Source of the DNA: Escherichia coli
GTDB taxonomy: Bacteria; Pseudomonadota; Gammaproteobacteria; Enterobacterales; Enterobacteriaceae
Direction: 5' to 3' (one strand)
DNA length: 64,000 nucleotides
NCBI RefSeq assembly: GCF_029227855.1
Contig: NZ_CP074357.1
The position numbers were made by a program. Below, piece by piece: positions 9,001 through 15,000 of the stretch. The stretch's first letter is position 1, and the number at the start of each line of letters is the position of its first letter.

Positions 9001-12000
9001 CAATGTAAGATAATAATTATCAATCTCATTTGAAAAAGGTGAAGGTTTTGATGAGCTAACATCTTCATTGTTCATCTCAATGACAAGTGCTGCATCCTGA
9101 CCAAAAGCTTTTACATTATGGTTTTTAAGAGAGAAGTCTGAAGTTGCCATATAAAAAGTCACTTTTGATAAAACCACATACCACCTAATGATTCATCATC
9201 GGCAAGATGCTTGAAATTTGAGAGTGTATATCCTGTTTTGGTTTCAGAAATCACCATGCTGTAAGATGCCGTATGTACAAGGCGAGAATTGTTTAGATCA
9301 AGATCATCACAAAAACCAGGGCTTTTGACGGGGTCAGCCTTTTCAACAAAAGTTACTTTTGAAGCGATGCCGTTGATCACGATTTTCTCGTTATCAGCAA
9401 TTTTAATGTTTAAAGAAGGCGAGCTTTTATCACATGGCAGGAAGAGTGATGTCTTTTTAAATGTGTTTCCAGTGAAGTCCAAAAGGTCAGGTTTAACCGG
9501 AACATTGTTTAGGATTTTATAAACTCCAGCAAATGCACATATCACAACAAAACCAGATAAAACATATCTAATCTTAGACTTCATCCCCCAGTTCCTCTCC
9601 TAAAAGTTTTAACGCACTTACGCACATAAGCCTCAACTGATACAGTAAGTTATCAGCGGTTATTCCACCAACGAAGGTAACTGTACGTCGTATTGATGCT
9701 CCGCCAGGCTCGCACTGGATATGGCCGATACCAGAATCACGGAGGAAGTCATTTTCTGCACTTACAAGGTCTGACTCTACAGGTGGAATGATAACTTCAA
9801 TGAGTATTGTATCAACTGGGGCCCACTCCCAATCGAACTTAAGAGAGGAAATTGGGGATATAGAAACAAGAAGCTCATCAATATTAAAAATTACGGGTTT
9901 TATTCCCATAACCTCAGACTGAATGAAGTGGCTTTCTACCATAACTACCGGAAACTCTGAAATAGTCAGAACTCCGATTAACTGGTCTCGGCGTAAACCA
10001 TGTATTAGTGAGTTGCGAGATAGCATTCGATCAGCCTTTATTATAATAATCAAACATTTGGGACAAGGACAAAAGGGATTACAGAAACGAAGATTCTACA
10101 TGAACATCGTTGTCAGTGACCTTAGGTCCATCGGGTATAAGGGTATCAAAAAATCCTTACATAACCATTAAAGCACAGAGACTTTATAAGTAAAATAATA
10201 ATTAAGTACCAGATTTATTAAGATAATTCTTAGGGAAGGTGCGAACAAGTTCCTGATATGAGATCATCATATTCATCCGGAGCGCATCCCAGAGGGACAT
10301 CATGAGCCATCAACTCACCTTCGCCGATAGTGAATTCAGCACTAAGCGCCGTCAGACCCGAAAAGAGATTTTCCTCTCCCGCATGGAGCAGATTCTGCCA
10401 TGGCAGAATATGACCGCTGTCATCGAGCCGTTTTATCCCAAGGCGGGCAATGGCCGACGGCCCTATCCGCTGGAGACCATGCTGCGTATTCACTGCATGC
10501 AGCATTGGTACAACCTGAGCGACGGTGCCATGGAAGATGCCCTGTACGAAATCGCCTCCATGCGCCTGTTTGCCCGATTATCCCTGGATAGCGCCCTGCC
10601 GGATCGCACCACCATCATGAATTTCCGCCACCTGCTCGAGCAGCATCAACTGGCCCGTCAATTGTTCAAGACCATCAATCGCTGGCTGGCCGAAGCAGGC
10701 GTCATGATGACCCAAGGCACTTTGGTGGATGCCACCATCATTGAGGCACCCAGCTCTACCAAGAACAAAGAGCAGCAACGCGATCCGGAGATGCATCAGA
10801 CCAAGAAAGGCAATCAGTGGCACTTTGGCATGAAGGCCCACATTGGTGTCGATGCCAAGAGTGGCCTGACCCACAGCCTGGTCACCACCGCGGCCAACGA
10901 GCATGACCTCAATCAGCTGGGTAATCTGCTTCATGGAGAGGAGCAATTTGTCTCAGCCGATGCCGGCTACCAAGGAGCGCCACAGCGCGAGGAGCTGGCC
11001 GAGGTGGATGTGGACTGGCTGATCGCCGAGCGTCCCGGCAAGGTAAAAACCTTGAAGCAGCATCCGCGCAAGAACAAAACGGCCATCAACATCGAATACA
11101 TGAAAGCCAGCATCCGTGCCAGGGTGGAGCACCCGTTTCGCATCATCAAGCGGCAGTTCGGCTTCGTGAAAGCCAGATACAAAGGGCTGCTGAAAAACGA
11201 TAACCAACTGGCGATGTTATTCACCCTGGCCAACCTGTTTCGGGTGGACCAAATGATACGTCAGTGGGAGAGATCTCAGTAAAAACCGGAAATAACGCCA
11301 GAAATGGTGGAAAAAATAGCCTAAATAGGCTGATTCGATGTGTTTGCGGGAAAAAAATCGGCCCAGATCCGCGAAATTTTAATCAGCGAGTCAGCTTGGG
11401 AAGAAATGACCTGCTTATTCGCACCTTCCCTTTTACTTTCGAAATCTGTTCTAATTGCCCAGTAATACTTGCAACATCAAGAGTAGTACCACCAAGATCA
11501 ATTACCAAACTTGATTCAAATGAAGCAATATCCTCAATTTCATCTGCCCGGGTCACAGCTGGTAAAGATTCAGGGAAAACAGTCACAGACAAAACGTTGA
11601 AAGAATAGCGTTTACCGTCAAGATAACGCTCAACTGGTTTCATCAGGTTATCTTTTTTTCTCTGAATATTTTCAATATTCGTTTCCCCTAAAGCAGTATA
11701 GAACTGGCTAAGAGGTAAAGTAACAAAGAGGTGAACATCCTGAGGAACTAAACCAGAAGCATGAAGTGCATGGTGAACATTTAACCGGCTAATTTCATCG
11801 TATTGGTGAGATACATCAGTCGATTCCAGTGAGTTACTAGATTCGCTGTGATGCGAAAACCTTTCCAGCCCATCAATAAGATAGTTAAAAGGATTGAGAC
11901 CCTCATGGCGAACACGGAAATCTGGAACAAAACTATTTTGTGTGAGCAAGGGAACTAATTCGTTTCTTTCATTAAGACAAACCAGTTTTGCAGCTTTACT

Positions 12001-15000
12001 TCCATCATCGACAACGATTTTTAAAGCTTCAGTGATATCCTGCAATGATTGTGAAACAGGACTTTCAGATTTTAATAGTTCAGCCATAAAAACTCTCTTT
12101 TATTAATAGGACCATATTAGATATTAACTTTATACATTAATGGTGACCTATTATCAACATCAACACTATTAAAAAAATACGTAACTCTATGTTATTTCAG
12201 CATCCTTCCATTTTAAATACATTACCGTTAAATATCCTGTATTCATGAAGTAAACATGTTTATAAAGGAGCCAATTATAATCAGAAAGTTACTTTGCATC
12301 CTAAGTATGAACTGTTTGAGAGCCAGGACTGGAGCCTTTACCAGTAAGTAACAAAGGTCCTTAGGCTTAGAATCCAAAATGACGCCTTTATGTAAAAAAA
12401 TCATAGCTCGAAATACCGTATCATCGATGTAAACATACGTAGAGGAATTTATGGCAGCTGAGCACGTCCAAACTATAGACCTTACAAACTTCTCGGGAAG
12501 GATTTTCTTTCTGGCAGATCCTCATGGACATTACTCTGCGCTGTGCAACTTGATTCAATCAGTTACAAAGCCAGAAGAAGAGATAGTAATTTTCTCTACT
12601 GGAAATTTGTTTGACTATGGGCCGGAACCCATAGAGTTGATGAAGGCGATAAACAGTGGCTTTTTCGATGGACGTTTTGTGAGGCATTTCTCAGCTGCCG
12701 GAGCCGGAGAAGAAATGTTAAAAAAATTGTTACCATTAAACAAAGACCGGAGAACATTTTACCCCAGCACATACCTCAATGAGAGATGGTGTGTAATGGG
12801 CGGAAAGTGGCATAAAGCTGTAAATCGTTACTATTTAGAGGAAGAGGTAAAAAAACTTCTTAATACCCAGCTTGGTACGATGATGCAGATTTTACTCAAA
12901 GGCGATATAAAAATTGGGGTTTGCCCTTCTGATTACGCCCCTATCCGCACATCATTCACTGATACTTATAATGCGCTTCAAGCATTCAACTATGCCAATG
13001 TGAATATTTTTCAGAGCCAGTTTCTATTCGGTATGGACCATGCCGTAATACCAATGATGATAAATGACGTCAACCTTATGGTCCTAGGTAGGAATCCTGT
13101 AAACAGCATTCGAAAAGCCCATGGTCGTACTCAAAACAATCTTCCAGTACTGATCGGTAATTGTTTACATATAAATACTGGATCACTCTATATGTCAAAA
13201 TTAGAAGACCAGGTAATAGTTGCTCCGGGTATACCGCCAACTGACTCACCAGCACTTACATTAGTAGAAATAATCATGAAGAACAATCCAGTTTTATTGT
13301 GTCATCAGCTAATACAAACAACAAACAAGTTTTATTCACTTAAAACCTATCCTTTAGAACTCGATTCGATTGAAAACAACATTGAGGTAACAAGATGAAG
13401 ATAAAATGGAAGATTATCTCAATTTCAACATTACTTTTGCATCTTCACGCAGCAGCTGCACCACATCAAGAGAAAGAGCAAAGAAAAGATGCTTTTTCTT
13501 CTGCCGCTCAGAAAAGTGATTCACTTATATCTGCTAAAGCGGAGCTTATAAACGGAAGGTGGTTTATAAATGGTAAATATAGGCCTGTTCTAAAGACCAG
13601 CATGACCAAAACCAATTTCTTAGAAATCATGAATGTTTCAAATAAAGAATCACTTTTTATGGTGATACCGAAACTTGAGTATAATATCATTGCCAAAAAT
13701 AAAATCTTACTAAATGAAAAAATTGCATTAAGCGAAGGCACATCCGGAAAAAGCATTGTTTGGGTCGAGCCTAAATCAAGTATAACTATATCGTTTATAA
13801 ATGACCTTGCTAATACGCCCCTTCAGGCTATCGTTTCGATCACAAGAAACAACAAAGATGTAATTGCCATCTTTGGACCGGATCAGGATAAAGGGTTTAC
13901 TCTTCCCGGAAAGACATCTAATGATCAAGTGTCCGTTCCTGACGATTCTGATCTAAATATAAAAAAACTTAACATACCTCAAAGTGTTGGTAATTCAGTA
14001 ACCATCAATCCTAAAGAGAAGAATTACCTCTTAGTTGGACAAGTAAAATATAAAATCTTATCTCTTCCGAAATATCAACATTTAGAATTTTCTGAACCGG
14101 TTTATATTGAGAAAAGAAAAGATATCCTCGGTGGTTATGGTTATTGGACGAAAGAAACAATTCTCTACCCCGGTGAATCATTATCTTTTATAACCAGCGC
14201 CAAAAACAATCTAAGGAAGCGGGATGATTAAAGTTATCACACTTTTATTGTTTGCATTACTGACTGGTTGTCAGTCAGTAGAAAGTAAAATCGAAGAACT
14301 CCCGACAGTTGGTTTTGACCCTATTCTATACAATAAAAGTGAGGCCTTTACTGACGGAAAAGTTACTTTACGTGTCGAAAGTTCAGGAACTGATGTTTGG
14401 CTTGTCGCCAAGAATGGAACCAGAAGTTTTATTGAGCTTTCAGGCCTAACGCTAGGTGGTAGTCGTTGTGCTTACAATGCCCGTAGTAAGCAACTTTTGC
14501 CCCCAGGCAGCGTAAGCACATTCGTAGTTCCTACGGTTGGAATGCTTGGACTTTGCTTCAACAATGAAGATCAACTTATGTTTATTAACCGTGCTTTTAG
14601 CAGAATCTCTCCCAAAGCAAAAGGAAAAGATTCTCTTTCTCTTTTATTTTCTGTTAGTTACGATTTTCCCGGAAAAGCGGACCTAATTAATAACCACGAT
14701 TTTCAAGAGTTATATCTTTTATTTTTGAATGAGGATAATCTATGAAAAAAACATTAATTGTTATTTTATTATGTTTTTGTCACTCAGTTTTAGCATATCC
14801 ATACCGTATCTATACTGTCCCGGAAGGGGCATTAGTAAAAAACATACTAACTAATGAATATCTAGGAAAAACCCCTGTGGTTGTGGACGTGAGCAATACC
14901 GAAGCTGGTTCTACTTTTGGGATTTCTTTATTTAGACATGAAAATGTTGCTATAAAGATTTTTACAGTAATGCCTTCAGCAGAAAATAATTTTGCTGTTT

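Follow-up and report, generated by a model that had tools for sequence, protein, structure and literature searches.

Insertion sequences that delete the DNA beside them have been described, among them IS1 and the IS5-family element IS903. Elements of the IS5 group ordinarily produce a 4-bp target-site duplication, which usually reads YTAR, the preferred target. Three papers that cite Lawley and Taylor (2003) on plasmid R27 attribute the stability of IncH plasmids mainly to the type I ParAB system and give the type II ParMR system a minor part (PMC4489591, PMC12317039, PMC13245405). The small gene downstream of intact parM is called parR in the literature (PMC5034289, PMC5955447). The ParM and ParR proteins of plasmid R1 have been reported to stimulate transfer (PMC4949242), and the title of Gibert et al. 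2014, as cited in the same paper, presents HtdA as a conjugation regulator.

Here we describe a site of this kind in a 64,000-nucleotide stretch of DNA (the window), which corresponds to bases 1-64000 of the 267,429-bp E. coli resistance plasmid NZ_MZ152088.1 (IncHI2A/IncN); whole-plasmid searches were made against that record. The original prediction was that IS5 had split a parM-like gene into an N-terminal and a C-terminal piece. Our analysis indicates a different history that is very probably correct, in which ISKpn26 was inserted into an intergenic spacer and an IS-adjacent deletion of 1,230 bp then followed, leaving a presumably dead ParMR module. The features of the region are collected in the table.

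Features of the htdA-parM-parAB region (positions in the window)
Feature	Position	Strand	Description
htdA (H transfer determinant A)	9574-10026	-	150 aa, intact; RefSeq WP_000952689.1
Region upstream of htdA	10027-10233		207 bp; ends in the original ISKpn26 target TTAG (10230-10233); unchanged left junction
ISKpn26 (IS5 family, IS5 group)	10234-11429	+	1,196 bp, complete; IRL 10234-10249, IRR 11414-11429
ISKpn26 transposase	10302-11282	+	326 aa; WP_000019445.1, "IS5-like element ISKpn26 family transposase"
Chimeric ORF annotated "parM"	11383-12087	-	234 aa; WP_077249218.1 in deletion-type plasmids
Deletion junction	11429-11430		Last IS base adjoins parM codon 220; 1,230 bp of progenitor missing
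parM remnant	11430-12087	-	Codons 1-219 and first base of codon 220; StbA_N and start of second domain
Region upstream of parM	12088-12450		Presumed promoter and parC-like site; 363 bp, retained, 100% identical to pAPEC-O1-R
parB	15193-16197	-	Pfam ParB, 4.8e-11
parA	16194-17447	-	Pfam AAA_31, 2.2e-20, with CbiA and MipZ

The insertion element and the genes that flank it

The element has the characteristics of the IS5 group. It is ~1.2 kb long, its transposase matched the Pfam profiles DDE_Tnp_1 (1.6e-35) and DUF772 (3.3e-21), and its ~16-bp terminal inverted repeats, GGAAGGTGCGAA(C/T)AAG, agree at 15 of 16 positions. Its DNA showed 100% identity with copies that carry the annotation ISKpn26, against about 91-95% for those labeled IS5, and by this measure the element is ISKpn26 and not IS5 proper, a minor correction to the original prediction. 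As that prediction had also stated, the element has TTAG at its left end and CTTT (11430-11433) at its right end, and the 4-bp duplication expected of the group is absent. No direct 4-bp duplication was found around the element, nor when its ends were shifted; AGG/CCT lengthens the inverted repeats on the outside, and a direct repeat is absent from the extended ends as well. No further ISKpn26 copy occurs anywhere on the 267,429-bp plasmid.

The gene to the left of the element is htdA, with which the htdA-htdF-rsp run of genes in Tra2 begins, and its product is identical to HtdA as annotated in IncHI2 plasmids. This ORF had been taken for the C-terminal actin-like part of ParM with a GGG-type motif. 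HtdA contains no GGG, only two isolated GG pairs, and it gave zero Pfam or NCBIfam matches. When intact ParM and ParR were searched by tblastn against all frames of positions 9400-10240, the best hit had an E-value of 0.68 and no ParM similarity was found. The closure of the minus-strand frame to the left of the element was read correctly, with a stop codon at 10096-10098. One predicted sigma-70-like site is left between the element and htdA (10072-10043, minus strand).

To the right, the chimeric ORF opens with ParM residues 1-220, to which the right end of the element adds 14 residues (KVRISRSFLPKLTR) and a stop codon. The 220-residue prefix is identical to that of intact ParM (WP_000818955.1). 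It matches Pfam StbA_N over residues 22-183 (5.5e-67) and carries the phosphate-1 motif VVDDGS at residues 25-30 and the phosphate-2 motif IDLGGTT at residues 196-202, in accord with the original description of an N-terminal fragment that runs into the right IS end. The fragment covers only positions 1-42 of the 159 in the ParM C-terminal domain profile (PF21523, beside StbA_N PF06406), whereas ParM of the intact relative matches positions 1-158 of this profile at 1.7e-60. The adenosine-type motif VGGGS, residues 304-308 of the intact 345-aa protein, lies within the deleted DNA. Intact ParM aligns with R1 ParM (1mwk) at E = 2.7e-43, which places the break at about residue 193 of 320; the lost portion thus looks like an essential part of the protein.

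With an unrelated htdA as the left ORF and no second half of parM, the gene is truncated, not split; that the two pieces come from unrelated genes is an outcome the original prediction had itself named as contrary to it. Insertion of IS5 into parM, followed by rearrangement, would leave an N-terminal piece on the right and a C-terminal actin-like piece on the left, and an ORF of plausible size does lie on the same strand beyond the end of the element opposite the N-terminal fragment. However, that ORF is identical in plasmids with a complete parM and has no actin-fold Pfam match, and the progenitor described below carries the element outside parM. We reject such an insertion as hardly credible.

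The loss extends beyond parM, and parR, which the original prediction did not mention, is gone entirely from the window. The adaptor/repressor gene that lies directly downstream of parM in a ParMRC locus is therefore lacking, and tblastn found no other match to ParM or ParR in the window or on the whole plasmid. The DNA upstream of parM contains no convincing iteron array; its repeats are limited to short ones that occur twice and to two imperfect 16-nt motifs that are related to each other (12104-12119 and 12138-12153). ParA and ParB, whose protein accessions are the same as in pAPEC-O1-R, form a type I system (15193-17447) that is the sole recognisable intact partition pair in the window and on the 267-kb plasmid, as had been proposed.

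Three states of the htdA-parR spacer

Comparison with related plasmids revealed three states of the site. Plasmid L003 has an empty site, with a single TTAG in the htdA-parR spacer (...ATAATTC TTAG GTTTTTTAC). In pAPEC-O1-R (NC_009838.1; L001), the element is flanked by TTAG on both sides, and both parM (345 aa) and parR (212 aa) are intact; this simple-insertion junction occurs in 24 records, pAPEC-O1-R and 23 others. The window represents the third state, TTAG-IS-CTTT, in which exact string comparison with pAPEC-O1-R showed that L001 positions 5431-6660 are missing. The same accession for HtdA is found in all three types of plasmid, and the 40 bp that end in TTAG are identical in L003, L001 and the window. 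The IS copy in the window is base-for-base the same as that in pAPEC-O1-R over its full length, and the flanks agree with L001 at 100% identity over 8.6 kb, compared with the empty-site plasmid's 7 SNPs in 5 kb.

These comparisons establish, at the level of sequence, the order of the two events and the extent of the deletion. The element entered the htdA-parR spacer and never parM, and that state is kept in pAPEC-O1-R and the 23 other records. Because the same element has TTAG on both sides in pAPEC-O1-R, the duplication must once have been present and later lost; its absence from the window reflects an IS-mediated deletion to the right of the element and not a simple insertion, as had been suspected. 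The missing 1,230 bp comprise the duplicate TTAG, a 196-bp spacer, the 639-bp parR gene (L001 5631-6269), an 11-bp gap and the 380 bp at the 3′ end of parM, which hold codons 221-345 and the stop codon. The element is intact and keeps one original junction, the loss starts exactly where its opposite end lies, and the normal insertion is preserved in a progenitor, which together make up the pattern of an IS-adjacent deletion.

The same 200-bp deletion junction was found in 67 PLSDB records (the window plasmid and 66 others) from Salmonella, E. coli, E. albertii, Enterobacter, Klebsiella and Shigella. The counts of 67 and 24 sum to about 92, the number obtained from a separate record match. The identity of the junctions suggests that all 67 deletion records have a single origin.

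A deletion that arose independently of transposase, through replication slippage or illegitimate recombination, and ended at the IS boundary by chance would fit the one base (C) of homology at the junction AAAC|CTTT, and an assembly artefact might be suspected from the probable sequencing errors in the first 5.4 kb of the record. However, the deletion begins exactly, to the nucleotide, at the intact IS terminus, and the junction recurs in 67 independently deposited records to which the region is 100% identical, which argues against an artefact. The deleted 1,230 bp are absent from the rest of the whole 267,429-bp plasmid; together with the single ISKpn26 and the lack of any other ParM or ParR, this indicates that the deletion is real. 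We therefore consider chance or artefact to be highly improbable. A microhomology-mediated deletion was also rejected, with just 1 bp in common; had the nearby ACCTT been used, the element would have lost its terminal CC, which is present.

Route of the deletion and its consequences

In the history that we favor, ISKpn26 first moved by ordinary transposition into the TTAG of the htdA-parR spacer of an IncHI2 plasmid, duplicating TTAG and keeping all genes intact. In a descendant, exactly 1,230 bp next to the resident element were then deleted through the action of its right end. We infer that this step was transposase-mediated, most likely through a one-ended intramolecular transposition whose target, inside parM, was non-canonical, and in which the IS terminus would be fused to the new target and the intervening DNA discarded on a non-replicating circle. 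The new junction, CTTT, is not YTAR, so intramolecular transposition would have used an atypical site, and this counts against the proposed route.

An alternative for the second step, one that leaves the insertion-then-deletion history unchanged, is that a second ISKpn26 in the same orientation transposed into parM at the present junction and that homologous recombination between the direct copies removed one copy together with the 1,230 bp. Enterobacterial plasmids and chromosomes often contain several copies of ISKpn26, an abundant element, some of the deletion-type records themselves have another copy at a different place, and recombination predicts an identical product, which the observed structure fits equally well. 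However, the left junction predicted for the second copy (the 3′ side of parM, CTTT and the IS left end) was found in 0 of 72,556 PLSDB plasmid records at ≥80% query coverage, the window plasmid has a single copy, and the second copy would likewise have had to use the non-YTAR target CTTT. On this evidence, recombination between two copies is an unlikely though plausible route. The end product taken alone is the same for one-ended transposition and for recombination between two copies, and a two-copy intermediate could have been short-lived.

By either route, the predicted outcome would be a dead type II (ParMR) module without its ParR adaptor/repressor, in which ParM would lack the distal second domain, including the VGGGS nucleotide-binding motif, and the 234-aa chimera would end inside the element. 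Segregation would then presumably depend on ParAB alone, with toxin-antitoxin genes as backup. The ORF labeled "parM" in the window plasmid and 66 other public records is, judging from its sequence, probably a dead remnant fused to IS DNA, and the absence of parR from these plasmids is not evident from the database product name. The main value of the analysis lies in correct annotation, and its findings will not surprise plasmid biologists. The empty site, the insertion, and the insertion with deletion provide a clean natural example of an ISKpn26-adjacent deletion. The deletion lineage has also spread to several genera of Enterobacterales, which amounts to a natural experiment and is consistent with the major role of ParAB and the minor role of ParMR stated in earlier work (PMC4489591, PMC12317039).

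We also considered the possibility that loss of ParMR was selected in this IncHI2 sub-lineage, to which 67 of the 91 plasmids that carry ISKpn26 at the site belong and which extends over at least six genera, and was not the result of neutral decay. Such selection seems doubtful. If it did occur, losing a minor module could reduce cost or end interference with ParAB or conjugation, the latter in view of the effect on transfer reported for ParM and ParR of R1. Alternatively, the ParM(1-220)-IS chimera, free of ParR repression, could poison the ParM filaments of incoming IncHI2 rivals, or the element could change expression of the htdA-led transfer operon.

Comparison with described systems

Literature searches returned no description of this specific deletion and none of adjacent deletions by ISKpn26. 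The event is an ordinary IS-adjacent deletion, which is a known kind of event. It resembles the adjacent deletions of IS1 and IS903 in that the complete element remains at its site with one flank unaltered, the deletion starts exactly at the other terminus, the duplication is lost and a progenitor with the duplication exists. It differs from them in the element, ISKpn26, and in the non-YTAR sequence of the new junction.

The partition genes can be compared with ParMRC of R1, Par2 of the IncHI1 plasmid R27 and parMR of the IncHI2 plasmid R478. The intact relative of the window locus has both StbA_N and the ParM C-terminal domain, and it aligns with R1 ParM structures at the E-value given above; its 212-aa ParR gave zero Pfam or NCBIfam matches. 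In contrast, the window keeps ParM residues 1-220 only and parR is absent, so that it appears to hold a remnant and not a working locus. Compared with pAPEC-O1-R and the 23 other IncHI2 plasmids in the simple-insertion state, the window has the identical element, left junction and 8.6-kb flanks, whereas those plasmids still have both TTAG copies, parR and a full-length parM.

A parallel is found in pMTY13189_IncHI2 (NZ_AP025641.1). In this plasmid, IS903B, another member of the IS5 family, lies in the same htdA-parR spacer, and a rightward adjacent deletion removes parMR and keeps parAB. That deletion is larger (~3.9 kb) and also takes a metallophosphoesterase gene and its neighbors, and the plasmid is typed as non-mobilizable. 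The IS903B deletion is an independent parallel to the deletion described here.

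An ISKpn26 element beside a truncated parM gene

The window matches bases 1-64000 of NZ_MZ152088.1 exactly; this record is an E. coli IncHI2A/IncN conjugative multiresistance plasmid of 267,429 bp. The insertion element shares 100% identity with sequences carrying the ISKpn26 annotation, against about 91-95% with those labelled IS5 proper. Judged by sequence identity, the name "IS5" in the original prediction is thus a close approximation, and the exact name is ISKpn26. The element ends in 16-bp terminal inverted repeats, GGAAGGTGCGAA(C/T)AAG, which agree with each other at 15 of 16 positions. 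The element is flanked by TTAG on the left (10230-10233) and CTTT on the right (11430-11433), as originally read, and shifting the register of the ends yields no target-site duplication.

Features of the partition region and of IS903B in related IncHI2 plasmids
Feature	Location	Strand	Basis or annotation
htdA ORF, 150 codons	9574-10026	-	RefSeq WP_000952689.1, "H transfer determinant A"
ISKpn26, 1,196 bp	10234-11429		identity to annotated ISKpn26 copies
ISKpn26 transposase ORF	10302-11282	+	Pfam DDE_Tnp_1 1.6e-35, DUF772 3.3e-21
Truncated-ParM ORF, 234 codons	11383-12087	-	Pfam StbA_N 5.5e-67
parB	15193-16197		intact
parA	16194-17447		intact
IS903B, pC45-VIM4	L004 2709-3764		
IS903B, pMTY13189_IncHI2	L013 4208-5262		

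The element had been proposed to split parM, with an N-terminal fragment carrying phosphate motifs at its right end and a C-terminal actin-like fragment with a GGG-type motif beyond its left end. The first fragment is present: residues 22-183 match StbA_N (the ParM N-terminal domain), VVDDGS is found at 25-30 and IDLGGTT at 196-202, and the second ParM domain profile is covered only at positions 1-42 of 159. The protein runs straight into ISKpn26 at residue 220; the element supplies its last 14 residues (KVRISRSFLPKLTR) and the stop codon. In an alignment of intact ParM to R1 ParM structures (1mwk, E = 2.7e-43), the break corresponds to about R1 residue 193 of 320; the truncated protein therefore lacks the distal portion of its second domain and with it VGGGS (304-308). 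The C-terminal fragment is absent. The left-hand frame does close on the minus strand at 10096-10098, as noted originally, and the ORF on that side (9574-10026) is htdA, annotated identically in relatives that keep complete parM. It has no Pfam or NCBIfam matches, its product lacks GGG, and a tblastn search of window 9400-10240 with intact ParM and ParR gave a best E of only 0.68. We therefore reject a second ParM fragment, and with it a split gene with both halves present.

On the upstream side of htdA, only 207 bp (10027-10233) separate its start codon from ISKpn26, and one sigma-70-like site (10072-10043, minus strand) is left in between. The title of Gibert et al. 2014, as cited in PMC4949242, places HtdA in a TrhR/TrhY/HtdA circuit controlling IncHI conjugation. 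Given this role, ISKpn26 might change how transfer is controlled in each of the 91 plasmids with the insertion. Downstream of the htdA-adjacent gene, a minus-strand ORF (8596-9177) annotated "plasmid transfer protein" has a Whirly ssDNA-binding-fold Pfam match below threshold (E = 2.9e-4; 21.1 bits, cut-off 23).

Three states of the site in related plasmids

Megablast of window 9000-12800 against PLSDB yielded 92 records with at least 80% query coverage, some of which align as two blocks with about 1,230 additional bp between them. In pMCR_WCHEC050613 the site is empty: the htdA-parR spacer reads ATAATTC TTAG GTTTTTTAC, parM is intact (345 aa), and downstream lies a 212-aa gene named parR in the IncHI2 literature (PMC5034289, PMC5955447). 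The plasmid pAPEC-O1-R carries an identical ISKpn26 at the spacer TTAG; a TTAG copy borders each end of the element, and both parR and parM are intact. The window has the same element and left junction, but lacks 5431-6660 of the pAPEC-O1-R locus (L001). Of these 1,230 bp, 4 are the right TTAG copy, 196 are spacer, 639 are parR and 11 are a gap; the other 380 are the end of parM. The flanks of the element in the window (6000-10233, 4,234 bp; 11430-15800, 4,371 bp) match pAPEC-O1-R at 100% identity, versus seven differing positions in 5 kb for the empty-site plasmid, so the deletion state descends from the simple insertion, in a single lineage. Junction-specific queries detected the simple insertion in 24 records and the deletion in 67, the latter from Salmonella, E. 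coli, E. albertii, Enterobacter, Klebsiella and Shigella; 1,058 records retain the deleted segment.

Near the record start, window 1-5400 differs from pAPEC-O1-R by 16 single-base deletions, one 3-base deletion and one substitution, many of the deletions adjoining short homopolymer runs. The frames of trhN, trhU, a TrbC-family gene, trhF and rsp are disrupted, and the rsp ORF ends at 5360 after 1,038 of 1,434 codons. No differences were found from 5362 to 6906, the end of that comparison. These frame breaks are probably unpolished long-read errors, not real pseudogenes.

Origin of the deletion

The complete 267,429-bp sequence, taken from the public record, contains one copy of ISKpn26, no part of the deleted 1,230 bp and no further ParM or ParR match. 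Inversion or translocation between IS copies is therefore ruled out, and of the IS-mediated deletion or rearrangement originally proposed in place of simple insertion, the deletion stands. It starts at the exact, intact right terminus of ISKpn26 with only one base of junction homology, the pattern that marks an IS-mediated adjacent deletion. Deletions of this kind are classically known from IS1 and, within the IS5 family, from IS903. An ACCTT microhomology near the junction was also considered; its use would remove the terminal CC of the element, yet CC is present.

We consider it very likely that insertion came first and adjacent deletion followed. ISKpn26 would have inserted at TTAG in the spacer, leaving TTAG on both sides and parR and parM intact, and the 1,230 bp to its right would then have been deleted. 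Within this history we lean toward one-ended intramolecular transposition by the resident copy. A second ISKpn26 copy entering parM in direct orientation, with the two copies then recombining, would leave the same end product, but a search for the predicted intermediate junction found it in none of 72,556 plasmid records at 80% or more query coverage and the plasmid carries a single copy; this is the distinctly less probable route. Whether by one-ended transposition or by recombination, the new junction target, AAAC|CTTT, does not conform to YTAR, the target preferred by the IS group of ISKpn26.

Remaining partition functions and parallel events

Because the distal second domain of ParM and all of ParR are lost, the type II (ParMR) module is almost certainly inactive. 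Two related 16-nt motifs just upstream of parM, TAATAGGACCATATTA (12104-12119) and TAATGGTGACCTATTA (12138-12153), may be parC elements or operators for ParR, in either case orphaned by the deletion of parR. The original expectation that no partition system but ParAB is left is right: parA and parB are intact, their products have the same accessions as in pAPEC-O1-R, and no other recognisable intact partition pair occurs on the plasmid. For the related plasmid R27, PMC4489591 describes type I as the major and type II as the minor stability determinant, and PMC12317039 describes IncHI2 likewise; these roles fit the persistence of the deletion lineage across genera. Toxin genes for HipA, the RelE/ParE family and the Hok family are also present on the plasmid.

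Between parA and a TraC-family gene is a 4.4-kb gap, most of it occupied by a tandem array (17827-21325) in which a 249-bp unit recurs about 14 times with 73% matches; the stretch is unannotated in pAPEC-O1-R too. There are no ORFs of at least 100 aa in 17448-21812, and a literature search provided no identification of the array, which could be related to ParAB centromere or incompatibility function.

The components of the ISKpn26 event are all known and annotated, and the event itself is an ordinary case of a well-known class; a literature search found no publication on this particular deletion. In pMCR1-43934 (IncHI2), ISApl1 occupies the spacer downstream of parR (L014 1940-2914) with the hipA region, not htdA, beyond it, which indicates a further rearrangement at this spacer. 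In many Enterobacter-type IncHI2 plasmids, IS903B has inserted at the stop codon of parR; a 9-bp duplication (CTATCTTGC) flanks it and parR is still intact. Together, the ISKpn26 and IS903B cases show that IS5-family elements have repeatedly landed in the htdA-parR spacer and that loss of parMR has occurred at least twice, independently. In pMTY13189_IncHI2, parR, parM, a metallophosphoesterase gene and more are gone and parAB is kept; as in the window plasmid, parMR was lost beside an IS5-family element, but there the element is IS903B and the deletion ~3.9 kb, compared to ISKpn26 and 1,230 bp here.
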